A stretch of DNA of 45,775 bases from Flavobacteriales bacterium (lineage in GTDB: Bacteria; Bacteroidota; Bacteroidia; Flavobacteriales_E; Vicingaceae): positions 1 to 45,775 of the forward strand of contig JAESST010000315.1 of NCBI GenBank assembly GCA_016763995.1, given 5' to 3'. Each line of letters begins with the position of its first letter. Position 1 is the stretch's first letter. A program made the position numbers and the translations under genes. Positions 3,294 through 45,775 of the stretch are shown one piece after another. The notes below the pieces were generated by a model. It was not told the origin of the DNA. It did not search any database and saw nothing but the letters and a program-made list of their open reading frames with translations.

Positions 3294-4382
3294 ATGCAGG
3301 TAGTAAGTAGAAATTATAATCACTTTCAAGATAATTTATTGCTAAAAGGTATTAAAGATGAGGAGACTATTGAGTTTATATCTAAATCAATAGAAGGGAA
3401 AAATGTAGACAGAACAGCTGTTTTATCTGTAGACAATAGATTCTCTATAGATAACTTACATGATTTAAGTGGAAACGACACACAATATTCTGCTATTCTT
3501 AACCTAAGAAAAGGGAATGATATTAAACATTTAACGAATTTTTACGGAGCCGTTAATGAGAAGTTAGAAGTTGGAGGAAGATTTGTAACTTGTGTAGAGA
3601 CTGCTTTGTTTAGAAAAGAACGTTTGTATAAAAAGTTTCCACCCATTATCAACTCTCTTTATTATTTTGTGGATTACCTAACCAAGAGAGTGGCTCCTAA
3701 ACTACCTGTTCTTCGGAACATATACTTTTTTATTACCGCAGATAGAAATAGAGTATTAACATCTGTGGAAGTATTAGGACGATTGGTGTATTGTGGATTT
3801 AAAATTGTTGAAACAAAAAAGATTAATAACCTTTTATATATCACGGTAGAGAAAGAAGAAGACAGGAAGGATGTAGAGTCTAAAAATTATGGTTTCTTTT
3901 TTAAAATGAAACGTACAGGTTTAAATGGGAAACCAATTCATGTATATAAAATAAGGACCATGAATGCCTATTCTGAATATTTGCAAGGTTATATATATCA
4001 AACAAATAGCTTGGACTCAGGAGGTAAGTTTAAAGATGACTATAGAGTGAATTTCATGGGAAATATCTTTCGTAAATTATGGATTGATGAATTACCAATG
4101 ATATATAATTTACTTAAAGGAGATATAAAGCTAGTAGGAGTGAGACCATTGAGTCAGCACTATTTAAGTTTATATTCGAATGACATTAGGCTTCGTAGGT
4201 CGAAATTCAAGCCGGGATTAGTTCCTCCTTATTACGTTGATATGCCAAAGACTATCGATGAGATTATGGCATCTGAGATGAAGTATTTTGAGGCTTATGA
4301 AAAGAGCCCTTTTTTAACCGACGTTAAATACTTCTTTAAAGCTGCTAAGAACATTATTATTAAAAAGGCTCGAAGCAAGTAA
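3294..4382 (+). CDS. polyprenyl-phosphate sugar-phosphate transferase (bacterial sugar transferase domain) with a ~190-aa N-terminal extension
   Basis: C-terminal hallmarks are KPIHVYKIRTM, DELPMIYNLLKGDIKLVGVRPL and KPGLVPPYY (WbaP/EpsL-type Bac_transf domain). The N-terminal part contains a GGRFV segment reminiscent of methyltransferase-like folds. Confidence 0.75.
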   Translation: MQVVSRNYNHFQDNLLLKGIKDEETIEFISKSIEGKNVDRTAVLSVDNRFSIDNLHDLSGNDTQYSAILNLRKGNDIKHLTNFYGAVNEKLEVGGRFVTCVETALFRKERLYKKFPPIINSLYYFVDYLTKRVAPKLPVLRNIYFFITADRNRVLTSVEVLGRLVYCGFKIVETKKINNLLYITVEKEEDRKDVESKNYGFFFKMKRTGLNGKPIHVYKIRTMNAYSEYLQGYIYQTNSLDSGGKFKDDYRVNFMGNIFRKLWIDELPMIYNLLKGDIKLVGVRPLSQHYLSLYSNDIRLRRSKFKPGLVPPYYVDMPKTIDEIMASEMKYFEAYEKSPFLTDVKYFFKAAKNIIIKKARSK

Positions 4383-6000: not shown

Positions 6001-7656
6001 TTAAATCTTGGAAATGAATTCGTAAATGTCTTGTTCGGGTGGAAGTTCTAACTTTTTACGAAGTCTATGCCTTAGTTTTCTTACAGAAGAAGGATGAATG
6101 TTACGTATAACTGCAATTTCTTTCCCATCTAAACGCAATCGAATTAAGCCACAAAGTTCTCTTTCTGATTTAGTCAATTTTGGATGTGTTTTGTCTAATT
6201 GAGCGAAGAAGGCTGAGTTTACCTCTTTAATCCCTTTTTGTTGTAAACTTACTTTATCGTATACGCCTGACTTTTGCTTTAATTCTCTGATGATGTTTTT
6301 AAGTTGTACTGGATCAATGCTTTCTTTTAATTTTCTTAATTCTTCAAGCTGAGTAATTAATTCTTGGCTCCAATCTTCTTTTAAAGAAATCTGCATTATT
6401 AAATCAGAAAAGTCATTGGATTTATGTTGTAAATCTTTGCTTAGCCTTTCATTTTCTAGTTCTGTTAGTTTTAGTCTTTGTTCTTTCAATTGCCTTTCGG
6501 CAGATTCAATTTTAGTTTTTCTCTTGGCGGTAGATCTTATGAGTAAACTGATAACTATAAAAGTGCCAATAAGAAATGCAATTAAAAAACTCTTTCTTTT
6601 ATTGTCTTCTTTGGATTTTAGCGCTTTATCTTTCTCAAGTTCAATTTCTCGATCGGCTGAAATTAGAAAGTAATCCGACATGGTGGCATTTAATAAAACA
6701 CGCTGCTCTTCTTCCCGTTTTAGTTCAATGGTTTTTAGGGAATCTAATATTCTATATTCCTTCAATATTAATGAACTTGTTTTAGAATGTTTTACCAGTC
6801 TAAGCTTGGCTTCATGGTACTTTAATTGGGTTTTAAAATACCAATTGTGTTGTCCAAATTGAAGGTAGGGTTTCATCGTGATTAGTAAGTTCTCTGCCTC
6901 TTGCCAATTCCCATTTTTGATAAGAATATCAAACAGCTTAAAGCCAAATTTCATTGCTTTTTTATATCGTTTGGGTCTCTTTGATAATAAATTAAAGTTG
7001 CTTTTTAAGAGAGAAAGACCCTTTAAACTATCCTTTTTGTGGAAGTAGTAGTTAGCTTTATTATCATTGATACTGGTTAAAAAGACACTATCGCTTTCAT
7101 CGTTAAATAATAAAGCATTAGAAGCTTTATGATAGTATTGGAATGCCTTTTCCCAATCTTTCTTTTTTTCATAAAGCATTCCTAGGTTATTTAATGAACT
7201 TGCTTCGTAAATTTTCTTGCCGTGTAAATAAGCAGACTTATTTGCCAATTGAAAATACCGTAAAGCAGAATCTAATTCGCCAGCTCGTAAGTAATCAGAC
7301 GCAAGTCTGCCTGCGTTCAAAATGTAGTTTGCCGTAGCAAACTGATCATTTTTGACTATAATATCTAACAGCCGTCTCAAATGTTTTTTTGCGTTTTTTG
7401 GTTGATTCACTATTCTAAAAGCACCAATGAATTTAAGCTGTATTTGCTGTTCTAATTTATCGTCATTGATTTGATGCTCGAGAAATAGTTTCTCTGCAAT
7501 CATGGCATGAAATATTGCTTTATCACCCCTTAAACTTATGGTTGTTGCTTCTTCAGATTTTTTGAGGTGACCTTTTATTATTGCAACGTGTTCCTCATTT
7601 TTTGCATGGACAGAAATTAGGCTAATAATAAAAAAGGAAAGTATAAAATACCTCAT
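6001..7656 (-). CDS. transmembrane TPR-repeat regulator with C-terminal LuxR/GerE-type HTH
   Basis: Signal-like N-terminus MRYFILSFFIISLISVHA and TPR-like repeats (e.g. EASSLNNLGMLYEKKKDWEKAFQYYHKA). One central TM helix (FLIAFLIGTFIVISLLI) is followed by a coiled coil. C-terminal LTKSERELCGLIRLRLDGKEIAVIRNIHPSSVRKLRHRLRKKL is a LuxR-type HTH. Confidence 0.65.
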   Translation of the reverse strand: MRYFILSFFIISLISVHAKNEEHVAIIKGHLKKSEEATTISLRGDKAIFHAMIAEKLFLEHQINDDKLEQQIQLKFIGAFRIVNQPKNAKKHLRRLLDIIVKNDQFATANYILNAGRLASDYLRAGELDSALRYFQLANKSAYLHGKKIYEASSLNNLGMLYEKKKDWEKAFQYYHKASNALLFNDESDSVFLTSINDNKANYYFHKKDSLKGLSLLKSNFNLLSKRPKRYKKAMKFGFKLFDILIKNGNWQEAENLLITMKPYLQFGQHNWYFKTQLKYHEAKLRLVKHSKTSSLILKEYRILDSLKTIELKREEEQRVLLNATMSDYFLISADREIELEKDKALKSKEDNKRKSFLIAFLIGTFIVISLLIRSTAKRKTKIESAERQLKEQRLKLTELENERLSKDLQHKSNDFSDLIMQISLKEDWSQELITQLEELRKLKESIDPVQLKNIIRELKQKSGVYDKVSLQQKGIKEVNSAFFAQLDKTHPKLTKSERELCGLIRLRLDGKEIAVIRNIHPSSVRKLRHRLRKKLELPPEQDIYEFISKI

Positions 7657-8331
7657 AATTAATCATAAATCAGAGAGATAAAATTAGTGAAAGAATTGTC
7701 ATTAATGCGTGACAGTTTTGTTTGTCCCCCCTTTGTGACGTTAAATGTACAGGATTCTAATATGAGATGTTATAACATTGTGCTTTAGAAATGGAATAAT
7801 TAAACAGAACTGTCAATTTATAATAATGGAAATAGAATGTATTCTAAAATCAATAAGAACAATTCTTTCAAAGATTGAGGGAGTAATCTAAGGTCTTTAT
7901 CAAATTTATCAGAAGAGTCAGATTTTTATTTTCACTTGAGTCTAACTAGGGTGGAGTTTGAAATTGTGATTGAAGAAATTGAGAAGTACTACCTGTTAGA
8001 TTTGGAGAGAAATGCATTGAAGCATACGGCAATGAAATGGTGGATTCTAAGATTTCTACAATTTGGGAAAACAAAAAAGGGAGGCAAGTTATGATAAATT
8101 AAAGTACGCAGCCTAATGTCATTAATGAAACTCACAGCTATGAAATTTTTAATTCTATTCGTTGTTCTAATTTCTTACCTATTTTTATCTGTGGTTAATT
8201 TTTTGGAAAGGAAGCCTCAGACATATATTTAGCTTTTATTGTGGTTTAGATTAAAATTTAATGTAATAAATTGAGGGTTTATCGTCTTTCGCTTTTCTGC
8301 AGTAAAACGAAAGATGAAGTTTATATTTTTG

Positions 8332-8556
8332 CTATTCTGCCAATTTATTCCCTTTTTTCATGGCATCAAAAAGAATTTCTACTACTAAGGTAAATAGCTT
8401 TTGTTCTTTTTTCTCACTCATTAATGGAATATTCACTTTCTCGTTCAAAAAGTTAGTAATTCCTTTCATGGTCTTTTTAGTTTCATCTATAGGTAGAAAA
8501 CCATCGCTCACGTCATTCATTAATTGGAGATATTCCTCAGGAAGCTTTTCTTCCAA
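8332..8556 (-). CDS. small hypothetical ORF immediately downstream of the RHS remnant (possibly orphan immunity-like or non-coding)
   Basis: 74-aa ORF with only a TTG start in the track and no ATG upstream in frame. I recognise no motif. Its position just 3' of an RHS core fragment is the only context. Confidence 0.2.
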   Translation of the reverse strand: MEEKLPEEYLQLMNDVSDGFLPIDETKKTMKGITNFLNEKVNIPLMSEKKEQKLFTLVVEILFDAMKKGNKLAE

Positions 8557-8585
8557 TTTTTCAAGTACTTTTTCTACTGCATGAG

Positions 8586-8985
8586 AAAAGACTCTTTCTC
8601 CACATATTGGTAGCGTTTTTAGTTATAAGTCTTCAGAGATGTATCTCCAAAAGGATAATATTCTTGATGATCAATACTACTTCCGTTGCTATCTAGTCTG
8701 GTGTTAGAAGAGCCAAAATGATCGTCAAAGCTATAGACGTTCAGCATCAATATTGTCATTAAAGGCCGTTCCAATGCTTACTTGTGCAATTCGAATTGCA
8801 TCGTCCATGATGTGAACAAGATTTTGTTCTTTGTCTTCTCCATCTTTTTGTTCTAGGGGTATTCAAATATTCCATCTATATAAACGCTTACTTCTTTGTT
8901 GCCTTGTTGATCAAAAACTATTTTCTTTACTCGATTTCCACCAGCATCATACAAATAATGAACATAGATAGAGGCTTCTTCTCCC
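8586..8985 (-). pseudogene. remnant of an RHS/YD-repeat (Tc-toxin C-like) core, broken by frameshifts and stops
   Basis: Hand translation of the minus strand gives HYLYDAGGNRVKKIVFDQQGNKEVSVYIDGIFEYP, then (shift) LEQKDGEDKEQNLVHIMDDAIRIAQVSIGTAFNDNIDAERL. A further shift gives YSFDDHFGSSNTRLDSNGSSIDHQEYYPFGDTSLKTYN*KRYQYVEKESF. YDxxGNR repeats and the ...EEYYPFG...(K/N)RYxYxGKE core-end motif are RHS hallmarks. At least two frame changes and an in-frame TAA are present. Confidence 0.6.
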
Positions 8986-9399
8986 GCTTATTGTGGTTTG
9001 AATTTGTTAAAAATTCTAGTTGTTTGTTTTTAATAAGCAGAATCTCTGCTGAGACTAGGATTATTGGGTTTGTAATAAAATGTTAATTAACAATTATTTA
9101 GAAATGTTGTTGTTGTGTATTTAGGATAACTGAATTTTTCGTTTAAAAACTTTGCTTCCGTTTTTAATGCTAGAGCCACCCAAAAACGGAAGCTATAGGA
9201 GGGGTAGAATATAGTTCGTAAACGTTTTTTTCAATTATCCTTTTTAAGGCATTACTACCTCAAGAAATACAATCATTTTGCGATAAGGTTTGGAGTGAAT
9301 CAATGTTGTTTTACTTTCGCGTAATTACTTTGGTTCTGCAGTTTCCGCCGATAATCTATTGCGTATTTTTTATTCACCTTTGTAAATGAATTAGGATGT

Positions 9400-9439
9400 A
9401 ATAATTGATAATTATCTTTGATGATAATTATCAATTATT
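9400..9439. promoter_or_regulatory. perfect 17-bp inverted repeat (AATAATTGATAATTATC-N6-GATAATTATCAATTATT), candidate operator
   Basis: Arms at 9400-9416 and 9423-9439 are exact reverse complements. The repeat ends 12 nt before the ATG (9451) of the HTH-S24 repressor-like gene. Confidence 0.4.
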
Positions 9440-9450
9440 TTTCAAAATGA

Positions 9451-10190
9451 ATGATGACGGATAAGGAGAAATTACAGCAATACTTAGAGAGGAAAGGCTT
9501 TTAGAAAAATTCATTTTACACTAAAACTGGCTTGTCTATTGGTTTTTTAGATAGCGGTAAATCTTTTGGATTGGACAAGTTAAAGTTGATTGTAGATAAT
9601 TATGATGATCTAAGTTTAGACTGGCTCATTTTTGATGAAGGCGAGATGATTGTTGAAGCTTCAGATAAAAAAGGAATGATGAAGCCTATGCCAAAGAAAT
9701 CGTTTAAAACAATTCCTGTTAAGGCAGTGTTGAGTAAAAAAATGATTCCTCATGTTGTAACAGTAGATAGTGAGGGAAATGAAAATATTTCCTTGGTAAG
9801 AAGTAAGGTTGCAGCCGGTTATGCAACCGGATTTATGGAACCGGAGTTTATTAGTAGTTTGCCAGACTTGAATAATTCTACCTTTAGGATGTTTGAAGTA
9901 AATGGGAACAGTATGCTACCTACTTTACATTCTTTGATATTGTTATTGGAGAGTTTGTTGAAGATTTAAGAGATATTAGGAACGATAGAGTGTATGTGAT
10001 TATTACTGATGAGGATTTAGTAGTAAAGAGGTGCATTCGTCACGAAGATAAGATCATAGCAAAAAGCGATAATCGAAATCAAGGTTATGATGACATCGTT
10101 TTTGATTTTGAAAATATTCGAGAAGTGTGGTATGTTAAACGAAGGTTAACAGGGCAATTGTCGGGGCAGACAGATATTTTGCTCGAATAG
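9451..10190 (+). pseudogene. CI/LexA-like repressor (N-terminal HTH plus S24 peptidase domain), disrupted by an in-frame TAG and a frameshift
   Basis: ATG at 9451 opens MMTDKEKLQQYLERKGF, then TAG (9502-9504), then the same frame continues KNSFYTKTGLSIGFLDSGK...LSLDWLIFDEGEM (HTH-type). The S24 motif NGNSMLPTLHS lies at ~9905-9930. After ~9933 the sensible continuation DIVIGEFVEDLRDIRNDRVYVIITDEDLVVKRCI...SDN is in another frame (ORF 9990-10190). Confidence 0.65.
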
Positions 10191-10283
10191 ACAGTTTAGA
10201 GGCTAGAATGGGAATTCAAGAGATCAAAATTAAATAAATTAACGATTAGTGAGATATGATTTGTATTAATTTGAAGGTGTGAT

Positions 10284-21585: not shown

Positions 21586-21609
21586 ACCCCTGAAGTAAAC
21601 TTCAGGGGT
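21586..21609 (-). terminator. intrinsic terminator hairpin between convergent genes
   Basis: CCCCTGAAG / CTTCAGGGG stem (21587-21595 / 21600-21608). An A-run lies on the + strand at 21579-21585, which reads as a T-run after the hairpin on the minus strand. It sits 28 nt downstream of the 342-aa gene stop and 8 nt after the phosphatase stop. Confidence 0.7.
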
Positions 21610-21636: not shown

Positions 21637-22665
21637 TTAAATTTGATTCGGACGAATCATTATAGAGTTTTGCTTAGGAGAGAAGGTAGTAAACTTCTTT
21701 ACGAAGTCGCGAATTAGTAGCTCTTTGTTAGTATGTACTTGTGATGTGTTTTTTGTTGTTAAGTTGAATCCAAAATTGAAATAATCTCCTGAGCCTTCAA
21801 TTACTCTTAGGCGTTGGAAAAAGTTATCGTTAATTTCAATTTGAGACAGGCTTATTGCGTGAGTTAATGTTTGATTGAAAATTGTATCCATAAACAAGGA
21901 TTCGACTCCAAATGGCATTTCTGAAATTTGTCCATAACAAACTTCAAGCAGTTGTTTAATGCTCCATTTGTTTTCTTTCAATAACTGAGTTTGCTTACAA
22001 TGGCTAGCTAGTAGTAACATTGAAGTGTTCAGAATAGTTTCAGAAATTCTATTCTCATTTATCTGATGAAGAGTTCTAATTTCTTTGTAAACAACGATCA
22101 AATCTTTGATGGTAATCCCTTTGGAATTGTTGTCAAGAAAATAAGATAGCTTTTTACTTAATTTCTCAAATGTTTCGAAAACAAGATTGTTGTTCTCTTC
22201 CATCTCAGTATACTTGTTATATAGGTGAAGATATACTGCATGTAAAGGACTGCCTTTACTGATTTTTGTTAACTCCTTTAATAAGGGAGCAGATTCTTGT
22301 TCTAAATTAAACCTCTTCATTTGGTGGAAAAGATTTTCTAGCTTCTTTGTTTTTTGAGCATTATTTTCAAACTGCTCTAAATGTATAGCATAATGCACAG
22401 TTGCTAAAAAACGATCTCTTGCATTCTCTGCTTTTAATCCGTACAATTCTTGAATTGCAACTAAAATTGGTCTTTCCAATCTTGGATAATTGCTATCATT
22501 TAAATAACAACTGATCATTATTTCTTTCTTAGACTCTCCCATCATCATGCTGTTGAAGATAGAAAGTACTGAGCTGTTGTAAGCAACTTTTGACTGTAAG
22601 CTCTTCTCTACCTCTAGCTGCTGCATGGTGGTTAGTTGGGATAGAAGAGTGGATACTGTCAACAT
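21637..22665 (-). CDS. hypothetical all-helical protein, no recognisable domain
   Basis: 342-aa ORF with ATG start. Composition is typical of helical-repeat proteins (L/E/K/N rich, no TM). It has its own terminator and an upstream region separated from the peptide genes by a strong hairpin. Confidence 0.6.
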   Translation of the reverse strand: MLTVSTLLSQLTTMQQLEVEKSLQSKVAYNSSVLSIFNSMMMGESKKEIMISCYLNDSNYPRLERPILVAIQELYGLKAENARDRFLATVHYAIHLEQFENNAQKTKKLENLFHQMKRFNLEQESAPLLKELTKISKGSPLHAVYLHLYNKYTEMEENNNLVFETFEKLSKKLSYFLDNNSKGITIKDLIVVYKEIRTLHQINENRISETILNTSMLLLASHCKQTQLLKENKWSIKQLLEVCYGQISEMPFGVESLFMDTIFNQTLTHAISLSQIEINDNFFQRLRVIEGSGDYFNFGFNLTTKNTSQVHTNKELLIRDFVKKFTTFSPKQNSIMIRPNQI

Positions 22666-22758
22666 TCGTTTTATTGTTTGTTTGATTACGATGTAAAAGT
22701 ATCCACATACCTTTTCTATATATAGGACATCTTATTTATAATTGGGACAATAGAAATG

Positions 22759-22824
22759 AAAAAAAATCAACTCGAATAACGCATAACTAATTAATATATA
22801 ATTTGTTATGCGTTATTCGAGTTG
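22759..22824 (-). terminator. strong intrinsic terminator (perfect 20-bp stem, 17-nt loop, T8 tract on the minus strand)
   Basis: CAACTCGAATAACGCATAAC (22768-22787) is the exact reverse complement of 22805-22824. On the minus strand the hairpin is followed by A + T8 (22766-22759). It lies ~50 nt downstream of the stop of peptide gene copy 1. Confidence 0.75.
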
Positions 22825-22874
22825 GATAGCTAAAAGTCGTAATATGTTATGTGTTTCTGACTACTTATTCTCCC

Positions 22875-23033
22875 CTAATTTTGTGCAGGAGCTACCACTG
22901 CTTGATCCCAGTCATTTAAATTTCCACCTTCTTCTAGGTACTTAGTTTTTAATTCTTCTTGTGTCCTGGTTTCAAAGTTAGCTGGTGTTCCGTATCCTAG
23001 TAATGAAATTAAAAGTGCAATTAAAGTAGTCAT
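22875..23033 (-). CDS. small peptide gene, copy 1 (52 aa): MTTLIALLISLLGYGTPANFETRTQEELKTKYLEEGGNLNDWDQAVVAPAQN
   Basis: Hand translation; the ORF is below the 60-aa cutoff of the ORF track. ATG start, TAG stop. It has a hydrophobic N-terminal helix and an acidic tail. A paralogue with synonymous differences lies 253 nt upstream, and a terminator lies downstream. Confidence 0.5.
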   Translation of the reverse strand: MTTLIALLISLLGYGTPANFETRTQEELKTKYLEEGGNLNDWDQAVVAPAQN

Positions 23034-23118
23034 AGTAAGGAAGTTATATGTAATTGGTGGTGAATTATTCGGGTTGGACAGCTAGAAGCCGTAATATGAT
23101 TAGTATGTTTCTGACTAC

Positions 23119-23286
23119 TTATTCTCCTTCATTTGGAGCAGGAGCTGCCACTGCTTGATCCCAGTCATTTAAATTTCCACCTTCTTCTAAGTATTCAGTT
23201 CTTAGCTCTTCTTGTGTCATGGTTTCAAAGTTAGCTGGTGTTCCGTATCCTAGTAATGAAATTAAAAGTGCGATTAAAGTAGTCAT
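23119..23286 (-). CDS. small peptide gene, copy 2 (55 aa): MTTLIALLISLLGYGTPANFETMTQEELRTEYLEEGGNLNDWDQAVAAPAPNEGE
   Basis: Hand translation with ATG start and TAA stop. The first 22 aa are identical to copy 1. Differences from copy 1 include 5 synonymous codon changes, which suggests selection on the coding frame. Confidence 0.5.
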   Translation of the reverse strand: MTTLIALLISLLGYGTPANFETMTQEELRTEYLEEGGNLNDWDQAVAAPAPNEGE

Positions 23287-23466
23287 AGTAAGTAAGTTAT
23301 AGGTGTATTTTATATTTTGCTTGCTGCAAACATACGCCTGTTAAAAACTATTATTTTAGGACAAAATAGCTCATTATCGGACAATTAGGGAGGGGGCTTT
23401 TAAAAGAAAGGAAAAGCAGTAAACTGACTAAGAAAGCTTTTCTCTATTTTCGCTTGGACAATAGAA

Positions 23467-25008
23467 ATGGAAAGAAATAGATATTTAACACAATTGCTTG
23501 ATGTAATCCGAGTGCTTAGGGGCTCCGAAGCAGATCTTGCGAAAAAGCATCTTATCGCTTACGAAACAAATCATACAGCAAAGCGTAGGAAAATGTTTCA
23601 GCTGTACAAATATATCAAAATTAATGACATAGAAGATTATGCTAAACTAAAAAAGAAAATTTCCCCCGATTCTACTGACGATTCCTTCAATAAATTGATC
23701 CGAAGAACGACGGGGCGAATTCAAGAATCTTTAATAGTTGACGTGAATATTCGAAGAAAAGACGCGTACAATGAAGTATTTAGAATGAAGTTCTTTTTGA
23801 GAAAACAATTAATGCAGGCTGAAATACTGATGAGTAGAGGCCTAGCCACTCGCCCAAGGATCATATTTGACAACTCTATTCGAATTGCCAAGAAATATGA
23901 ATTGTACGATGAATTGATAGAATCAACTGAATTTAAACAGAGGTTAGTCTATGATACACAAGGGATAAAGGCTTTTAGGCAAGTTGTAGAGGAATTAGAT
24001 TTTTATGAAAAATGCCGGTATTATCTAAGAAAAACAAAAAGAATTCAAACAATGCTTGAAGTGACTATTTTGCAAAAGTCGTTCGTTGGAAAAATTAATA
24101 AGAGCCAAAAAAATGATATTAATAAAATACTAGACTACTACGAAGAAACAAAGTCGGCTAATATATTGAGTTATTATTATTTATTAAAGCTAAGGATAGC
24201 AAAGATAGAGAGTAATTTGAACGAGGTTTCTATGGTAATTAAAAGCCTGATTGATTTAGTAAGTAACTCCTCCGCATTATATTCAATCGCAAGGATCTCA
24301 TTTCTAAAAAGAGAGTTGGCTAATGTAGAGTTTACTAAGATGGATTTTGAGGTGGCTCTAGTAGAGATTGAAAATGCTATAGGTGAGATTAAAAAGGATG
24401 GAATGCTGTATGTTGGTCTTCAGACTAGAAAGCTTGAAATATTAATCTTGTTATCTCGATACCAAGAGGTATTTCCTGTAATTGAAGAGTTTAGCAATTT
24501 AAAGTTTATAGAAAAGTATCCGTATCAACAATCATTGATTAATTATAACAAAGCGATTGCTCATTTTGGGCTTTTGGAATACAAGCAGGCATTAAACCTT
24601 CTTTCTCAAAAGAATGAAACCGAGAAAGATAAAGAAGGTTGGAACGTATGGATTCGAATCATGAGAATTCTATGTTCTATTGAACTCTTAAAGTTGAACA
24701 TGATTGATTATGATGTAGAGAGTTTTCGTAAGTACCTTCAACGAACTGCCAAGCAATATGAAGTTCGCGAGCGTGATAAATTAATTCTAAATGTATTAAT
24801 GGAACTGGACAAGCAGAGCTATAATTTTGAAGCCACTTCTGTAGAAAAAGAAAAGGAATTAAATCTACTCAAATCCACCGATAAAAAATTCGCTTGGAAC
24901 CCAGATTCTCCTGAAATGATTTTATTTCACGAATGGTTTGAAGCCAAACGATTAAAGATGGCATATCTGCCTAATTTTGAGGTTTATCGAGAGGCGAGGA
25001 AAAATTAA
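23467..25008 (+). CDS. hypothetical all-helical (TPR-like?) protein, no recognisable domain
   Basis: 513-aa ORF with ATG start, transcribed divergently from the peptide genes. It has no TM or signal peptide. Helical-repeat-like segments are present (e.g. YNKAIAHFGLLEYKQALNLLSQ). Confidence 0.6.
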   Translation: MERNRYLTQLLDVIRVLRGSEADLAKKHLIAYETNHTAKRRKMFQLYKYIKINDIEDYAKLKKKISPDSTDDSFNKLIRRTTGRIQESLIVDVNIRRKDAYNEVFRMKFFLRKQLMQAEILMSRGLATRPRIIFDNSIRIAKKYELYDELIESTEFKQRLVYDTQGIKAFRQVVEELDFYEKCRYYLRKTKRIQTMLEVTILQKSFVGKINKSQKNDINKILDYYEETKSANILSYYYLLKLRIAKIESNLNEVSMVIKSLIDLVSNSSALYSIARISFLKRELANVEFTKMDFEVALVEIENAIGEIKKDGMLYVGLQTRKLEILILLSRYQEVFPVIEEFSNLKFIEKYPYQQSLINYNKAIAHFGLLEYKQALNLLSQKNETEKDKEGWNVWIRIMRILCSIELLKLNMIDYDVESFRKYLQRTAKQYEVRERDKLILNVLMELDKQSYNFEATSVEKEKELNLLKSTDKKFAWNPDSPEMILFHEWFEAKRLKMAYLPNFEVYREARKN

Positions 25009-40009: not shown

Positions 40010-41020
40010 ATGAGTGAGACTGAGTTAAAATATTTAATCGAGCAGCTACCAAAGGCTGAATTACATTTGCATCTAGAAGGTTCATTCGAACCTGAATTGA
40101 TGTTTGAAATAGCAAAACGAAATCAACTTAAAATTAAGTTTGAGTCAGTTGAAGAAGTAAAGGAAGCTTATAAATTCAATAATCTTCAAGAGTTTTTAGA
40201 CATTTACTATGAAGGGGCCGGAGTACTATTAAAAGAACAAGACTTTTTTGATTTAACTTGGGCTTATTTGACGAAAGTACATTCCCAAAATGTAGTTCAT
40301 GTTGAGGTGTTTTTTGATCCTCAAACGCATACAGAAAGAGGCGTTCCTTTTGAAACGGTTCTTTTAGGGATTTACAAAGCATTGGAAAAAGGGCAACATG
40401 ATTTGAATATTTCGTTTTGCTTAATTATGTCTTACTTGAGGCACCTAAGCGAAGAGTCTGCTTTTAAAACATTAGAACAATCTCTAGCTTTTAAAGATTT
40501 AATTGATGGGATTGGATTGGATTCTTCAGAAGTTGGAAATCCACCTGAAAAATTTGAGAAAGTATTTAAAGCCTCTGCTGAAGCAGGCTATAAATTGTGC
40601 GCCCATGCCGGTGAAGAAGGACCTGCTTCCTATATTTGGGGGGCATTAGATCTCTTAAAGGTTGACAGAATAGACCATGGTAATCGTTGTTTAGAAGACG
40701 AAGCATTAGTTGAGCGATTGGCAGAAGAGCAAATGCCTCTCACCTTATGTCCCCTTTCTAATTTAGAATTGAAAGTAATTGATCGACTAGAAGATTATCC
40801 ATTAAGAGAGATGATGAAGAAAGGTCTTTTAGTTACCTTAAATTCTGACGACCCCTCTTATTTTGGTGGATATATGAATGAAAATTTCATACAAACGGCT
40901 TTGGCAATTAAGCTCTCAAGAGATGAAATTATCACCTTAGCAAAAAATGCTTTTGATGCTTCTTGGTTGACCGAAGAAGAAAAACTGAAGAGAAAAGAAG
41001 AGATTGATGAAATGAGATAA
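40010..41020 (+). CDS. add: adenosine/adenine deaminase (Add family)
   Basis: I prefer the ATG at 40010 (MSETELKYL). PKAELHLHLEGS is the metal-binding motif. CAHAGE, DRIDHG and SLNSDDP-type (TLNSDDPSYFG) motifs are present. Confidence 0.9.
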   Translation: MSETELKYLIEQLPKAELHLHLEGSFEPELMFEIAKRNQLKIKFESVEEVKEAYKFNNLQEFLDIYYEGAGVLLKEQDFFDLTWAYLTKVHSQNVVHVEVFFDPQTHTERGVPFETVLLGIYKALEKGQHDLNISFCLIMSYLRHLSEESAFKTLEQSLAFKDLIDGIGLDSSEVGNPPEKFEKVFKASAEAGYKLCAHAGEEGPASYIWGALDLLKVDRIDHGNRCLEDEALVERLAEEQMPLTLCPLSNLELKVIDRLEDYPLREMMKKGLLVTLNSDDPSYFGGYMNENFIQTALAIKLSRDEIITLAKNAFDASWLTEEEKLKRKEEIDEMR

Positions 41021-41063
41021 AAATTTCGACAGACTTGGGTAACCTTTGTCAAATAGCTATCTT

Positions 41064-41112
41064 GAAGGCTTCTAAAAAATTCTATTATGAAATTAAGAAG
41101 CCTTCTTTTTTT
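41064..41112 (+). terminator. hairpin plus T7 tract after add; the loop contains the start codon of the next gene
   Basis: GAAGGCTTCT (41064-41073) is the exact reverse complement of AGAAGCCTTC (41096-41105), followed by T7 (41106-41112). The ATG at 41087 lies in the 22-nt loop. Confidence 0.45.
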
Positions 41113-44100
41113 GTTCTGCATCGTTCTTTTTTTAGCCAGCTGTGGCGATAAAAAAGAAGCTCCTGAACGAATCGATCCAGGGTTTACAAATCACATTAGT
41201 GGTTTTACAGCAGGTGTAGTTTCTAATCAAGCTAGAATTAGAATTCGATTAACGGAGCCTGTCTCCTCAGCTGTAGTAGGAGAAGAAGTAGACGAATCGT
41301 TATTTGATTTTTCTCCTAATATAGACGGAAAAACAATTTGGATTGATAACAAGGTCATTGAATTTCAACCAAACGAAAGGCTGCCTTCTGGAACCATTTA
41401 CGATGTAGAATTTGAATTGGGAAAACTCAAAGATGTTCCCTCTAAGTTAGAAACTTTCGAATTTAGATTCCAAACCATTACACAAGGAATCTTTGTTGTG
41501 TTTGAATCGATGAAAGCTTACGATGATAATCATTTGGAATGGCAGCAACTTTCAGGCAGTATACAAACCAACGATTATGCAGATTTAGATGCACTTCAAA
41601 AAACCTTAGAAGCAAGCCAAAACGGAAAAGAATTGACCTTGAGTTGGGAATTTGATGCGTCAGGTTTATCGCATCATTTTGAAGTAGATAGTGTAAGTAG
41701 AGGAGAGAAAGAGGGAAAAGTAATTCTTTTTTGGAGTGGTGAGGAAATAGATGCAGAGACAGAAGGTGAAGAAGTAATCGTTATTCCTGCCCTAGGCGAT
41801 TTCAAGGTGATGAGTGTAACAGTTGAGCAGCTGCCAAAGCAAACCATTACCGTTAATTTTTCTGATCCTATTAATCATTCCCAAAACCTAAATGGCTTAA
41901 TTTTTTCAGATGGAGGAGAGAAATTTAGGCTTCGAAAAGAAGGAAATACGGTTTATCTATATCCATCCAATGACCTTTTTGGCACTCGGAAATTAACCGT
42001 TTCTAAAAGCATTAAAAACACATCTGATTATCCATTGTCAGAGGAGTTTAGTAAGAGCATCGTATTTAACAACACCAAGCCAGAAATTGCCTTTGTGGGC
42101 AGTGGGAACATTTTACCATCTATGGATGGATTCAAATTGCCCATTAAAGCAGTTAATCTTAGTGGCGTTAATGTAAGAGTGATCAAAGTATTTGAAGATA
42201 AGGTATTGCAGTTTTTCCAAGTGAATGACCAAAATGGGGAAAGCGAAATGAAACGAGTGGGAAGGCTCATTGCTAAAGAATCTATTTCCTTTTTAAGCGA
42301 CAAAAAAATCAATTTTGCCACTTGGAACACTTTTAACTTAGACCTTACAGATATGGTGAAGGTAGAACCCGGAGCTATTTACAGAATCACCCTAAGTTTT
42401 GATCAAAGTCAGTCACTTTACCCTTGCGATAGTAGCGAAGAAGTAAGTTCTAACTATAACATTACAGACAAAGAGTTAGCTTGGTACGATACACCACTTA
42501 ATTATTACTACGATTATTATCCAGATTATGAATATGACCCGGATTATAATTACAAGGATCAAGATAATCCATGTAAAGCTTCTTTTTACTCGAGGAGAAA
42601 GCACTCTGTTACCAGAAATATTCTAGCATCAAATATTGGAATCATTGCAAAAAGCGGCAATGAAACTGAATTTAAAGTAGCTATTACAGACTTAAAAACG
42701 ACAAAGCCTATTTCAGGAGCTGAGGTAGAATTATTCAATTTTCAAGGACAAAAAACCACTTCTGTTTCAACCGATGGAGAAGGTTTTGCTTCTATTGATT
42801 TGAAAGGAAGCCCTTTCTTATTAGTAGCAAGTCATAACAATCAAAAAGGATATTTGAGAGTAGATGATGGTTCTGCCTTATCATTAAGTATGTTCGATGT
42901 GGGTGGTGAACGAAATACCAAAGGAGTGAAAGGATTCATTTATGGAGAAAGAGGCGTTTGGAGACCGGGAGATTCCTTGTTTTTAAGTTTTATCTTAGAA
43001 GATAAGAATCAATCATTACCCGAAGATCATCCTGTGATTTTTGAATTATATACTCCCGGTAATCAGTTGTTCCAAAGAATGGTAAAAACGAAGGGGCTCA
43101 ATGGTTTTTACGATCTACGAACTGCAACATCAAGCTCTTCTCCAACAGGAAATTGGCAAGCAAAAGTGAAAGTTGGAAACTCAATATTCAGGAAGAGATT
43201 GAAAATAGAAGCGGTTAAACCTAACAGACTAAAAATAAAGATTGAATTTGATGAAGAAATATTGTCTAGAGGCAATACGAACGGAACATTAAGCGCAAAG
43301 TGGTTACATGGAGCAGATGCAGACGACTTAAGAGCAACGATGGAAATGAACCTGAGCAGTGGAAATACGAGCTTTAAGGGACATCCTGATTATCATTTTG
43401 ACGATCCATCCAAAAGCTTCTCAACTGATGAAGAGATGGTATTTGATGGAAATTTAAGTTCCATTGGAGAAACATCAGTTTCTCCTGATATTTTAGTTGC
43501 AGAAGGGGCTCCGGGTATGTTGAATGCATCTTTCAAGACAAGGGTGTTTGAAAAAGGAGGAGATTTTAGTGTAGATCGTTTTAGAGTAAAGTATTCTCCT
43601 TATGATAGCTACGTCGGGGTGAAAATTCCAAAGGGAAAAGGATGGAACGATGCCTTGTATTCTAATGAGCCGAACTTGTTACCAATTGTTACTTTGGATG
43701 AAAAGGGGAATCCGGTAGACCGGAAAAACCTAAAGATTGAAATCTTTGACATCTATTGGAGATGGTGGTGGGAAAGAGGAGATGGAGATGATCTTGCTCG
43801 ATACGTCAGTAACAAAAGCCGATACCTGATTAAATCGGAAACTATTTCTACCAAGGGTGGAAAAGCACTATATCAAATGGAGTTCAATGAAAATCATTGG
43901 GGTAGGAAAATGATCCGAATTACTGATCCTGTTACAGGGCATTCTACAGGAGCTACCTTTTACTTGACCTATAAAGGATGGTGGAATAGCAACAGCGGCA
44001 ACAATCCAGGTGGAGCAGAGATGTTAAGTTTTGCGACGGATAAAAAGAAATACCAAGTAGGAGAGCAAGTAAAATTAGAATTGCCAGACTTAAAAGAAGG

Positions 44101-45775
44101 TCGAGTATTGGTGAGTATAGAAACGGGCTCTAAAATTATCTCCACGTTTTGGAAAGAAGCCTCAGAAATTTCTGACGGAATTACTTTCGAAACCACGGAC
44201 GAGATGGCTCCGAATGTATATGCTCATTTAACTTTAATACAAGCGCATGCATCAACGGCGAACGATTTGCCAATTCGAATGTATGGAGTACAAAACATTG
44301 AAGTGGAAGCGGCAAGTACGCACTTGAATCCGGTATTAGAAATGCCAGACGAATTGGCCCCAGAGCAAAAAGTGAAGCTAAATGTGTCAGAAAAGGATGG
44401 AAAAGCAATGACCTACACAGTGGCAGTTGTGGACGAAGGGCTATTAGATTTAACGCGTTTTCAAACCCCAGATCCTTGGCCTAATTTCTACAAAAGAGAA
44501 GCCTTAGGAATAAAGACTTGGGATTTGTATCAATATGTGATGGGAGCTTTCAGCGGAGAAATTTCCGGATTATTAGCCTTTGGAGGAGATGGGAATCTGA
44601 AAGGAAAAGATGGAACAAAAGCCAATCGTTTTAAACCTGTTGTCACATTTTTAGGCCCTTTTGAATTAGAAGAAGGAGATAATAATGATCATGAATTTAC
44701 CATGCCAAATTATGTGGGTTCTGTTAGAACGATGGTAATTGCAGGAAACCAAGGCGCATATGGATCAACTGATAAAGCAACACCAGTAAAGAAAGCTTTA
44801 ATGGTGTTGGCGACTCTACCACGAGTAGTGAGTCCTTCAGAAAAGTTAAAGTTGCCCGTTACTGTTTTTGCAATGGATGAAAAGATCAGCAATGTAAAAG
44901 TGACTGTAGAAGCGAACGAATTTTTCTCACTTCCTGAAAAGCAGAAAACAATCAACTTTTCTAAAGTAGGAGATCAGGTGTTATTTTTTGACATTATCGT
45001 AAAAGAAAAGATCGGTGTTGGAAAGGTGAAAGTAACTGTTGAAGGCAAAGGAGAAAAAGCAACGCACGAAATTGAAATTGGAATTCGATTGCCGAACCCT
45101 GAAATAGATAAAACTCTTAGCGATGTAGTAGAAAATGGACAAACTTGGTCGAGTGACTATCAACCGATAGGAATTGAAGGGACCAACAAAGGAGCGATTG
45201 AAGTTTCTATTATACCGCCGCTGAACTTGGAAAGAAGACTCGATTATTTGATCCGATATCCACACGGTTGTATCGAGCAAACGACTTCTTCTGTATTTCC
45301 TCAGTTGTTCTTAACTGATTTAGTGAAACTAAGTGCTGATAGAACCAAGGAAATACAAAGCAACATCTCCAATGGATTAAAACGAATTCGGACCTTCCAA
45401 TTGAACAACGGTGGCTTTTCGTATTGGCCTGGGGGTTATGAAGCAAGTACTTGGGGGACCAACTATGCAGGACATTTTGTGGTAGAAGCCAAAAATAAAG
45501 GCTATGCTATTCCTACAGGGATGTTTGACGATTGGGTTAAATTTCAGACAAAAGCCGCCAATGCTTGGGCAAGTGTAAAGAACTCTTACAACTCTAGAGG
45601 ATACAGATACGGCAGAGAGTTAGAGCAAGCCTATCGGTTGTATGCTTTGGCTTTGGCCGGGAAGTCAGCGATGGGAGCTATGAATCGTTTGAGAGAACAA
45701 GCTACTTTGAGTCAATCTGCAAAATGGCGCTTAGCCGCAGCCTATGTACTGTCTAATAAAATGGACGTTGCCAAA
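41087..45775 (+). CDS. alpha-2-macroglobulin-family lipoprotein (bacterial A2M, YfhM-like), 3'-truncated by the window edge
   Basis: Lipoprotein signal MKLRSLLFLFCIVLFLASCGD. Frame 2 is open from 41087 to the window end (1563 codons), and no + strand stop-terminated ORF is listed there. The thioester motif YPHGCIEQT lies at 45257-45283. Only antisense shadow ORFs appear on the minus strand. Confidence 0.9.
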   Translation, partial: MKLRSLLFLFCIVLFLASCGDKKEAPERIDPGFTNHISGFTAGVVSNQARIRIRLTEPVSSAVVGEEVDESLFDFSPNIDGKTIWIDNKVIEFQPNERLPSGTIYDVEFELGKLKDVPSKLETFEFRFQTITQGIFVVFESMKAYDDNHLEWQQLSGSIQTNDYADLDALQKTLEASQNGKELTLSWEFDASGLSHHFEVDSVSRGEKEGKVILFWSGEEIDAETEGEEVIVIPALGDFKVMSVTVEQLPKQTITVNFSDPINHSQNLNGLIFSDGGEKFRLRKEGNTVYLYPSNDLFGTRKLTVSKSIKNTSDYPLSEEFSKSIVFNNTKPEIAFVGSGNILPSMDGFKLPIKAVNLSGVNVRVIKVFEDKVLQFFQVNDQNGESEMKRVGRLIAKESISFLSDKKINFATWNTFNLDLTDMVKVEPGAIYRITLSFDQSQSLYPCDSSEEVSSNYNITDKELAWYDTPLNYYYDYYPDYEYDPDYNYKDQDNPCKASFYSRRKHSVTRNILASNIGIIAKSGNETEFKVAITDLKTTKPISGAEVELFNFQGQKTTSVSTDGEGFASIDLKGSPFLLVASHNNQKGYLRVDDGSALSLSMFDVGGERNTKGVKGFIYGERGVWRPGDSLFLSFILEDKNQSLPEDHPVIFELYTPGNQLFQRMVKTKGLNGFYDLRTATSSSSPTGNWQAKVKVGNSIFRKRLKIEAVKPNRLKIKIEFDEEILSRGNTNGTLSAKWLHGADADDLRATMEMNLSSGNTSFKGHPDYHFDDPSKSFSTDEEMVFDGNLSSIGETSVSPDILVAEGAPGMLNASFKTRVFEKGGDFSVDRFRVKYSPYDSYVGVKIPKGKGWNDALYSNEPNLLPIVTLDEKGNPVDRKNLKIEIFDIYWRWWWERGDGDDLARYVSNKSRYLIKSETISTKGGKALYQMEFNENHWGRKMIRITDPVTGHSTGATFYLTYKGWWNSNSGNNPGGAEMLSFATDKKKYQVGEQVKLELPDLKEGRVLVSIETGSKIISTFWKEASEISDGITFETTDEMAPNVYAHLTLIQAHASTANDLPIRMYGVQNIEVEAASTHLNPVLEMPDELAPEQKVKLNVSEKDGKAMTYTVAVVDEGLLDLTRFQTPDPWPNFYKREALGIKTWDLYQYVMGAFSGEISGLLAFGGDGNLKGKDGTKANRFKPVVTFLGPFELEEGDNNDHEFTMPNYVGSVRTMVIAGNQGAYGSTDKATPVKKALMVLATLPRVVSPSEKLKLPVTVFAMDEKISNVKVTVEANEFFSLPEKQKTINFSKVGDQVLFFDIIVKEKIGVGKVKVTVEGKGEKATHEIEIGIRLPNPEIDKTLSDVVENGQTWSSDYQPIGIEGTNKGAIEVSIIPPLNLERRLDYLIRYPHGCIEQTTSSVFPQLFLTDLVKLSADRTKEIQSNISNGLKRIRTFQLNNGGFSYWPGGYEASTWGTNYAGHFVVEAKNKGYAIPTGMFDDWVKFQTKAANAWASVKNSYNSRGYRYGRELEQAYRLYALALAGKSAMGAMNRLREQATLSQSAKWRLAAAYVLSNKMDVAK

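Follow-up and report, generated by a model that had tools for sequence, protein, structure and literature searches.

A small acidic peptide gene paired with a divergent TPR-like gene across Bacteroidota as a possible ligand/receptor module

A compact locus in a 45,775-nucleotide (nt) stretch of DNA from a Flavobacteriales bacterium of the Vicingaceae (assembly GCA_016763995.1, contig JAESST010000315.1; the whole stretch is hereafter called the window) encodes two tandem peptides of 55 and 52 amino acids (aa), a divergently transcribed 513-aa protein that is predicted to be a tetratricopeptide repeat (TPR)-like protein, and a 342-aa protein. The small peptide genes strictly co-occur with 513-like genes, and the module is present in at least about 50 Bacteroidota species-level genomes. 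Based on comparative analysis of these genes, predicted structures and the transcripts of an orthologue, the locus was tentatively interpreted as a peptide-ligand/TPR-receptor regulatory module that would be analogous but not homologous to Rap-Phr, with a rough probability of 0.4. The peptide, 513-aa and 342-aa families are new to Pfam, NCBIfam, PADLOC and PHROGs, in which no above-noise match was obtained for any of the four proteins.

The peptide genes and their divergent neighbour

The locus had been described in an original prediction, made from the sequence alone, as two large genes flanking a region of about 800 base pairs (bp) with two paralogous genes for 52- and 55-aa peptides. All four open reading frames (ORFs) lie as described, as judged by the ORF list and the sequence. 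The 342-aa gene occupies 21637-22665 on the minus strand, peptide gene 2 (52 aa) 22875-23033 and the promoter-proximal peptide gene 1 (55 aa, MTTLIALLISLLGYGTPANFETMTQEELRTEYLEEGGNLNDWDQAVAAPAPNEGE) 23119-23286, both on the minus strand, and the 513-aa gene, the core of the module, 23467-25008 on the plus strand. The gap between the two large genes measures 801 bp, and the strands confirm that the peptide genes are divergent from the 513-aa gene.

A scan of 72 further loci from species-representative genomes yielded 20 orthologues of the peptides in 17 loci (individual loci carry L numbers). A word-indexed protein search with the 55-aa peptide matched only the paralogue in the window, and the orthologues were recovered from locus sequences. 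The gene order 342-like(-)/peptide(-)/513-like(+) and its orientation are kept in 17 related genomes; in three relatives (62%, 51% and 44% identity), the same order stands beside the same obg-PAP2-crcB-phosphodiesterase block, with peptides beginning MATLIALLISLLGYGTPSDFENY, MTYLITLLISLLGYGTPSDFEHL and MTTLITLLISLLGYGTPADYADY. Across the orthologues, codons 1-17 show 1331 synonymous versus 582 non-synonymous codon differences, including TCN/AGC serine switches, and codons 18-33 show 577 synonymous versus 1730 non-synonymous differences; the conserved reading frame begins exactly at the ATG. The small ORFs, for which the original prediction had named conservation, expression and a coding signature in relatives as the points to check, are conserved, carry a coding signature and are expressed in an orthologue (see below), and they are true genes.

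Each peptide opens with an apolar segment of 13-17 residues that does not vary, continues into a semi-conserved helix and closes with a variable, acidic tail, the last part of which is a short clade-specific cassette (GG-NLN-DWD in the window peptide); in the window clade, residues 1-36 are conserved. The apolar N-terminal stretch covers about 13-17 or 14-22 residues, starts at Met1 and has no basic n-region, and the 19-residue Kyte-Doolittle maximum of the window peptide is 1.28. The tails are strongly acidic, with an isoelectric point (pI) of about 4. With no basic n-region and a short apolar stretch, the N-terminus does not look like a classical Sec signal peptide or an unambiguous transmembrane helix. 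The hydrophobic N-terminus and acidic variable tail attributed to these peptides were thus borne out for the tail and cut back for the N-terminus, in which only about 13-17 residues are apolar. Three resemblances of the peptide were considered and rejected: a double-glycine leader misfits in register and spacing and has no peptidase-containing ABC transporter (PCAT); a pilin-like N-terminus (I-E-x-L-I) has no pre-pilin leader, and its Glu is absent in the window clade; and a KdpF-like subunit link to the adjoining trkAH was discarded on finding that trkAH is not adjacent in L002 or L003.

The two peptide genes form a tandem duplication at 22784-23304 on the minus strand (repeat families D1, D2 and D6), which consists of two units of about 253 bp, each comprising a peptide gene and its 3' flank. 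Positions 22873-23051 and 23126-23304 are 92% identical, and the flanking pieces are 78-100% identical. Peptide gene 2 is a 90%-identical paralogue of peptide gene 1 with an earlier stop, where a GAA codon has become TAG. The duplicated unit excludes the promoter and the second terminator arm, and because both lie outside the repeat, a single promoter and a single terminator probably serve both peptide genes. In DNA metagenome run X2, a 289-nt contig of very low coverage matches the promoter-proximal copy (window 23131-23403) with 10 differences, and the seven that are listed base by base cluster at 23190-23219. The loose 3' end of this contig (TACTTATTCTCCCCTA) matches the end of the 52-aa copy, which points to a natural population that includes a hybrid or single-copy variant.

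The pairing of peptide and 513-like genes was examined with a peptide filter that required an ATG-started ORF of 35-110 aa with apolar residues 2-13, Gly at 12-16 and a hydrophilic tail, applied in six frames to 674 kb from 76 loci. It returned 49 hits in 43 of the 76 loci, all on the opposite strand upstream of a 513-like gene and none elsewhere in the 674 kb; one of the 49 is an overlapping-frame artefact, and, since the filter was designed post hoc, its specificity, not its sensitivity, is the meaningful result. The spacing between the hits and the 513-like gene is mostly 87-500 nt, with one case of about 700 nt. Eight further loci carry variants that the filter missed, for example MISAISTLLIAASLLIGSGS...IITNDEVGM in two to four tandem copies. 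Where the 513-like protein is only 25-32% identical, a small ORF with a hydrophilic, mostly acidic tail is likewise encoded divergently upstream, and the N-terminus of these distant peptides, M-[IL]-E-x-L-I-A-x-L-[LM]-[SA]-L-G, aligns with MTTLIALLISLLG of the window. The pairing with 513-like genes persists down to 25-30% identity, and the arrangement of a peptide gene with a gene for a helical protein, which had been pointed to as something to seek in related genomes, is found across Bacteroidota.

The cassettes differ between clades. The window clade carries GG..[DE]W[DE], and other clade-specific forms are [IV][IV][IV]xPD[VI]DP or ..TDDDDP, IITNDE[VT]GM, IIGLEE[ST]D[MF] and GTEQSGWGLK. Three peptides carry their cassette twice (L008, EDGGTFGDWDVPG; L023, IGTEQSGWG; L069, IVVVPDIDP), and tandem arrays of peptide genes reach four copies. 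In many clades the cassette follows a GG or LGGD, with GG at no fixed distance; L009 lacks GG.

The 513-like genes are often tandem paralogues, and two kinds of small gene recur beside them. A response regulator consisting of a receiver (REC) domain only (Pfam Response_reg, 5.5e-14) is the next gene past the peptide gene, in the same orientation and in the position of the 342-like gene, in at least 14 other species, and a gene of about 100 aa that is XRE-like (weak HTH_31) is divergent from the second 513-like paralogue in 18 species. The other neighbours of 513-like loci are unrelated housekeeping genes. With these REC and XRE-like neighbours, the 513 family therefore keeps company with small signalling or regulatory proteins, which is the context in which Rap proteins act; the known targets of Rap proteins are Spo0F, ComA and Rco. 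In another Bacteroidota clade, a recurrent array was observed at L047, L055, L059, L063, L065 and L071 (e.g. L059 27-6424), which runs REC gene(-), peptide gene(-), 513-like gene a(+), XRE-like gene of about 100 aa(-), 513-like gene b(+) and a gene for a MauG-like di-haem cytochrome c peroxidase of about 640 aa(+), often with DUF2400 beyond the REC gene. Within the window clade, one or two extra 513-like paralogues without a peptide gene of their own lie directly downstream of the peptide-linked copy at L003 7591-9159, L010 5810-7417 and L005 6009-8730, and those of L003 are followed by proteins with a type IX secretion system (T9SS) tail (Por_Secre_tail).

Structure and divergence of the 513-aa and 342-aa proteins

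The 74 homologues of the 513-aa protein, all annotated as "hypothetical", come from Flavobacteriales and Vicingaceae metagenome-assembled genomes. The AlphaFold2 (AF2) model of the window protein, with a predicted local distance difference test (pLDDT) score of 89.9 and a predicted template modelling (pTM) score of 0.82, contains about 27 paired helices, including an N-terminal helical domain, and no strands. In a Foldseek search against the PDB, its top matches are all TPR-type superhelices with E-values of about 1e-3 or weaker, comprising Rap-pLS20 with Phr*, RapI, phage Raps with peptides, the Rap-CSF complex, MalT domain III, LGN and consensus TPRs; 6t46, 8rte and 4gyo are peptide-bound Rap structures, and 4i1a is apo RapI (template modelling score by target, TMt, 0.60). 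The helix-repeat character originally read from the composition of this protein thus takes the form of a predicted TPR-like superhelix. The resemblance to Rap cannot count as homology, because other TPR proteins match equally well. A PDB sequence-profile search gave a weak consensus-TPR match at profile positions 269-380, to designed consensus TPRs and LGN only, and the Pfam TPR models TPR_2, TPR_12 and TPR_MalT match 9 of 71 family members, the window protein not being among them. The protein has no signal peptide or transmembrane segment. Residues 381-420 (ETEKDKEGWNVWIRIMRILCSIE) form the most conserved stretch family-wide and lie partly in a low-confidence loop of the model, which also holds the near-invariant motif E-K-D-K-E-G-W-N (386-393); the invariant polar residues of the family are E21, E145, S230, K389, E406 and R436.

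Divergence is distributed unevenly over the module. Between the window and its nearest relative L001, protein identity is 94% for Obg, 96% for TrkA, 88% for TrkH, 80% for the 342-aa protein, 77% for the phosphodiesterase and 62% for the 513-aa protein, and the peptides are about 45% identical overall, yet 18 of their first 21 residues are the same. Within the 513-aa protein, identity to L001 is 74-86% over residues 1-150, 26-48% over residues 151-350 and 78-86% over residues 401-500; the protein is a mosaic of two conserved parts (residues 1-150 and 381-500) and a hypervariable one (residues 151-350). The non-synonymous divergence (dN) is 0.135 for residues 1-150, 0.61 for 151-350 and 0.17 for 351-513, with 0.03 for Obg and TrkA, and the ratio to synonymous divergence (dN/dS) is not readable because dS is saturated (proportion of synonymous differences, pS, about 0.7). 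An invariant peptide N-terminus with a variable tail, together with conserved flanks around a hypervariable centre in the large protein, would be the pattern expected of a co-diversifying ligand/receptor pair.

The module is dispensable, being lost or truncated in L068 and replaced in L017. At L068, from a Vicingaceae single-cell genome, only two broken C-terminal 513-like fragments (4097-4365) are left between crcB and trkA, and at L017 (2827-4765) an IS3-family transposase (HTH_Tnp_1 and rve) stands in place of the 342-like and peptide genes together with the 5' half of the 513-like gene.

The AF2 model of the 342-aa protein (pLDDT 77) is all-helical with a disordered C-terminus, and no significant structural neighbour was obtained with Foldseek (best E 1.3). 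Rgg3 and ComR top its Foldseek list with E above 1 and a TM-score of about 0.2, which is at chance level, and they were rejected as evidence. Searches of the PDB and Pfam gave no match, and widening the profile to 30 sequences did not change this. Among 1.84 billion proteins, only 37 representatives of the family occur, and the 342-like gene is found only together with an LLISLLGYG-type peptide. Homology between the 342 and 513 families was rejected (hhalign probability 0.9%). The description of both large proteins as helical and free of known domains agrees with the AF2 models and the library scans; the predicted TPR-like superhelix concerns the 513-aa protein, and no significant counterpart was found for the 342-aa protein. 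A hidden helix-turn-helix (HTH), which the loosely LuxR/GerE-like N-termini might have contained, found no support when 30 proteins of the 342 family and the first 110 residues of 40 proteins of the 513 family were scanned against Pfam; for the latter, no HTH family appeared even at E<=10, nor any PDB HTH. The hidden HTH that the original prediction proposed to look for in the large proteins was thus not supported by the Pfam or the PDB profile searches.

Promoters, terminators, transcription and flanking genes

The consensus of the -7 promoter box of Bacteroidota is TAnnTTTG. A matching -7 box, TATGTTTG (23327-23334, minus strand), lies 40 nt upstream of the first peptide ATG, and a TAnnTTTG box is found 35-45 nt upstream of the peptide ATG in most of the relatives' loci. 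A direct repeat, TTGTCC-N15-TGTCC (23359-23384, minus strand), is located 24 nt upstream of the peptide -7 box as a candidate regulator site, and a second copy (22725-22750, minus strand) is located 23 nt upstream of the -7-like TACTTTTA of the 342-aa gene. The pattern TTGTC[CA]-N14-16-TGTCC has exactly two occurrences in the 45.8-kb window, both on the minus strand, versus 0.09 expected, and the same geometry and position of the direct repeat recur in L003-L008. A third box, ATTTCTATTGTCC (23456-23468, minus strand; repeat D7), overlaps the start codon of the 513-aa gene and is kept in close relatives; a near-identical copy (22745-22757, minus strand) is part of the element at 22725-22757 upstream of the 342-aa promoter. 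The block TACTTTTACATCGTAAT (22685-22701, minus strand), which comprises a -7-like box and the start of the 5' untranslated region about 20 nt upstream of the 342-aa ATG, is kept across relatives whose 342-like proteins share only 35-57% identity, and a TTGTCC-TATATATAGA-N13-ACTTTTACATCGTAATT block precedes the 342-like gene clade-wide. The TTGTCC direct repeat upstream of each makes co-regulation of the peptide operon with the 342-aa gene probable, possibly in a feedback loop, and we infer from the shared repeats that one DNA-binding factor may act on both. At L009, L011 and L012 (about 3830-3990 in each), the TTGTCC repeat is absent, a palindrome-like TTAACTAAnTTTAGTTGA lies between the peptide and 513-like genes, and this motif is repeated close to the 342-like gene; subclades may have different operators.

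The very strong terminator that had been placed between the peptide genes and the 342-aa gene is present. The intrinsic terminator after peptide gene 2 (22758-22824, minus strand; inverted repeat I1) has a 26-bp stem, a 5-nt loop and a T8 run on the minus strand; its arms (22768-22793 and 22799-22824) are 96% complementary, and the RNAfold free energy (dG) is -34.3 kcal/mol. A simple terminator scan did not flag this hairpin. A hairpin 3' of the peptide gene is found in 16 of 16 relatives examined. The 342-aa transcript is ended by a G+C-rich hairpin with a T run (21586-21609, minus strand), between the 342-aa gene and the convergent phosphodiesterase gene.

Transcription was observed for an orthologue. 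No RNA run matches the window itself, and four marine metatranscriptomes contain the corresponding region of L004, a locus from a genome of Flavobacteriales UBA1494. Over a 3.4-kb stretch of this locus, the RNA contigs cover 3629-3857, that is, the peptide coding sequence (3656-3829) with a 28-nt leader and a 27-nt trailer, at word depths of 45, 10, 11 and 6 in the four runs; the 342-like gene is represented by a single contig with a depth of 3.6 in one run, and the 513-like gene by no contig. These are assembler contigs, for which depth is a rough measure and strand is not given. The 5' end lies 28 nt upstream of the ATG, just past the -7 box, and the 3' ends fall at the equivalent of the terminator. 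From this coverage, the orthologous peptide gene therefore gives a short discrete transcript that is far more abundant than its neighbours, and it is transcribed in seawater.

The flanks of the module in the window are housekeeping genes, with obg, PAP2, crcB and phosphodiesterase genes on one side and trkA, trkH and yceI on the other. The GC content is flat over the locus with no anomaly, and the locus is inherited vertically next to obg and is not island-like. A defence-system origin was rejected with empty PADLOC and PHROGs searches, and a phage or mobile-element (arbitrium-like) origin was rejected on the finding of no relative in 2.9 million viral contigs, a syntenic chromosomal site beside obg and no GC anomaly. 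Rfam and tRNA scans gave no match in the intergenic region or the locus, and a known RNA element is ruled out. Taken with the empty domain libraries, the synteny in relatives upholds the early description of a compact, duplicated and conserved module of families without known domains. Elsewhere in the window, 6001-7656 (minus strand) encodes a 551-aa protein that starts with a signal-like segment and contains TPR repeats (Pfam TPR_12, 1.9e-9) and a single apolar segment in its interior; its C-terminal stretch looks like a LuxR-type HTH (...SERELCGLIRLRLDGKEIAVIRNIHPSSVRKLRHRLRKKLEL). The protein appears to be another TPR regulator, unrelated to the module. Positions 7657-10283 and 41021-45775 contain no complete ORF of at least 150 aa (the ORF list omits ORFs running off the window end) and no rRNA, tRNA or Rfam family, and the frame-1 translation of 41020-45775 is full of stops.

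Interpretation and relation to known peptide systems

In the proposed mechanism, the small acidic peptide, made from an abundant short transcript, would act as the specific ligand or partner of the divergently encoded, cytoplasmic 513-aa TPR-like protein. The hypervariable central repeats of the 513-aa protein could bind the variable peptide tail, and its conserved N- and C-terminal domains could engage conserved partners. The 342-aa protein, or the REC or XRE protein elsewhere, may serve as the output component, and the peptide operon and the 342-aa gene would be co-regulated, possibly through autoregulatory feedback. More speculatively, the N-terminal segment may drive non-classical export or membrane insertion, and a processed C-terminal cassette may act as a cell-cell signal; repeated cassettes, gene arrays, fast-diverging tails and a very abundant transcript speak for such a processed signal. 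The peptide-signal/receptor pair first suggested is supported in part: the TPR-like fold, the conserved paired peptide, the REC/XRE context in other clades and the hypervariability speak for it, and no HTH, canonical export signal or RRNPP homology was found.

Several results weigh against this interpretation. No canonical export signal was recognised in the peptide, which has no basic n-region and a short apolar stretch. Genes for a protease, an exporter or an importer are missing from the conserved neighbourhood, nor is any transporter gene linked to the locus; in a diderm, both export and import routes would be required for a cytoplasmic receptor. The match to Rap structures is weak and unspecific (E about 1e-3; TM-scores of 0.3-0.6, and by query, TMq, 0.34-0.44), as for any TPR superhelix, and no HTH or effector domain was found in the 513-aa or 342-aa proteins by Pfam and PDB profile searches. 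A partial Mantel test of peptide-tail against 513-centre divergence gave no significant covariation (partial r 0.10, p 0.20), with peptide tails that are probably saturated. Finally, the peptide filter was drawn up after the peptides had been seen.

The rival that survives best, though it is held somewhat less probable than the ligand/receptor module, is that the peptide stays inside the cell as a cytoplasmic or membrane-associated helical hairpin or anchor that tethers or sequesters the 513-aa protein, and perhaps the 342-aa protein as well, or controls it allosterically, in the manner of an anti-adaptor or anchor. Small proteins of the AcrZ, MgrB and KdpF type, of about 50 aa with an apolar helix from or near Met1, act by binding a larger partner; unlike them, the peptides have a shorter apolar stretch and a long, strongly acidic tail, and their partner is soluble and TPR-like. 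An intracellular partner agrees with an apolar stretch that starts at Met1 with no Sec-type n-region, with a 513-aa protein that has neither a signal peptide nor a transmembrane segment, and with conserved housekeeping neighbours that include no exporter, peptidase or importer. The conservation of residues 1-36 in the window clade reaches beyond a short leader, and the high transcript level also fits a stoichiometric partner. However, duplicated cassettes, tandem arrays and fast-diverging tails are more typical of processed signals, and a standard transmembrane helix would need a longer and more hydrophobic apolar segment than that of the window clade.

A bolder form of the ligand/receptor interpretation, which is considered doubtful, is that the 513-like/peptide pair founded a phylum-wide peptide signalling system of Bacteroidota as an independent analogue of Rap-Phr. 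The apolar 13-mer would then be a new export or processing signal, and the cassettes (DWD, IVVxPDVDP, IITNDEVGM, GTEQSGWG) would be pherotype signals that are read by the TPR centre and relayed to receiver-only, XRE-like or 342-aa partners.

It is improbable that the peptides are precursors of bacteriocins or of ribosomally synthesized and post-translationally modified peptides (RiPPs), with the 513-aa and/or 342-aa proteins as novel leader-binding, maturation or immunity factors. The leader-like N-terminus, the variable C-terminus, the multi-copy and multi-cassette precursors and the GG or LGGD conserved before the cassette in many clades recall such precursors, and the invariant polar residues of the 513 family could form an active site. 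However, no known modifying enzyme, C39 peptidase/ABC exporter or immunity gene is present in the conserved neighbourhood, the distance from GG to cassette is variable and GG is missing in some orthologues, strongly acidic tails are unusual for bacteriocins, and inheritance beside obg is vertical, not that of an island. The MauG-like di-haem peroxidase downstream in six distant loci would suit a modifying role, but the peptides linked to it contain no Trp. Least probable of all are type-I-toxin-like or generic small membrane proteins with helical neighbours that are incidental or only regulatory: small ORFs with a hydrophobic N-terminus, tandem copies and strong terminators resemble ldr/ibs/zor-type loci, but 513-like pairing holds to 25-30% identity with no filter hit elsewhere in 674 kb, the tails are acidic (pI about 4) and hydrophobicity is weak, no Rfam antitoxin RNA was found, and abundant in situ transcription would be unexpected of a toxin. 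Two alternatives listed from the outset, a toxin and a bacteriocin, have accordingly become less likely, given acidic tails, high expression and the lack of enzymes or exporters.

Among known systems, the proposed ligand/receptor module is closest to the Rap-Phr systems (RRNPP family) found in Bacillus and its plasmids and phages (RapF/RapI, Rap-pLS20/Phr*/Rco), in which a cytoplasmic protein made of a helical bundle and TPRs, without an HTH, is encoded beside a small pro-peptide-like gene, the peptide genes are duplicated or carry repeated cassettes, and receptor and peptide diversify fast. The partners of Rap-Phr are receiver-only response regulators or XRE-type repressors, and such genes occupy equivalent positions in other Bacteroidota clades. 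Rap-pLS20, for example, acts on Rco (PMC7641744). Unlike Rap-Phr, the module shows no sequence homology and no RRNPP-related Pfam or NCBIfam match; its peptide gene is divergent upstream, not downstream overlapping, encodes an N-terminus in which no Sec signal was recognised and resides in a diderm host; a clade-specific 342-aa orphan replaces the known partners; no Opp-like importer is linked; and the protein has about 515 aa versus about 380 aa, with an extra conserved C-terminal domain. As judged by these searches, the module is not a homologue or member of RRNPP. The HTH-TPR receptor systems Rgg/SHP, ComR/ComS, PlcR/PapR, NprR/NprX and AimR/AimP likewise combine a TPR-type receptor with an adjacent small peptide gene, often divergent in Rgg/SHP, and show pherotype diversification. 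In contrast to those systems, neither large protein here has a detectable N-terminal HTH, and the peptides are acidic and 45-98 aa long versus short and hydrophobic.

The literature search found no peptide/TPR signalling system described in Bacteroidota, in line with the statement in the original prediction that none is established there. A survey of RRNPP covered Firmicutes only (PMC10075063), and N-acyl-cyclolysine (ACL) was the only widespread chemical signalling pathway reported for Bacteroidota in a 2026 review (PMC13419125). Unlike the gene-encoded peptides, ACLs are small acylated molecules made by enzymes, and the two share no components.

Communication by ribosomal peptides via cytoplasmic TPR receptors has been regarded as characteristic of Bacillota and of their mobile elements. 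The module in Bacteroidota displays an evolutionary pattern typical of receptor-ligand pairs, and its peptide gene is highly transcribed, small and easily overlooked by gene callers and annotators. Should the peptide prove to be a signal, peptide-based quorum sensing would extend to a phylum that is prominent in the sea, in soil and in the gut, and an export signal of a new kind would be implied. Should it instead act as a partner inside the cell, the module would still be a new and widespread small-protein regulatory circuit with testable promoters, TTGTCC boxes and cassette motifs.

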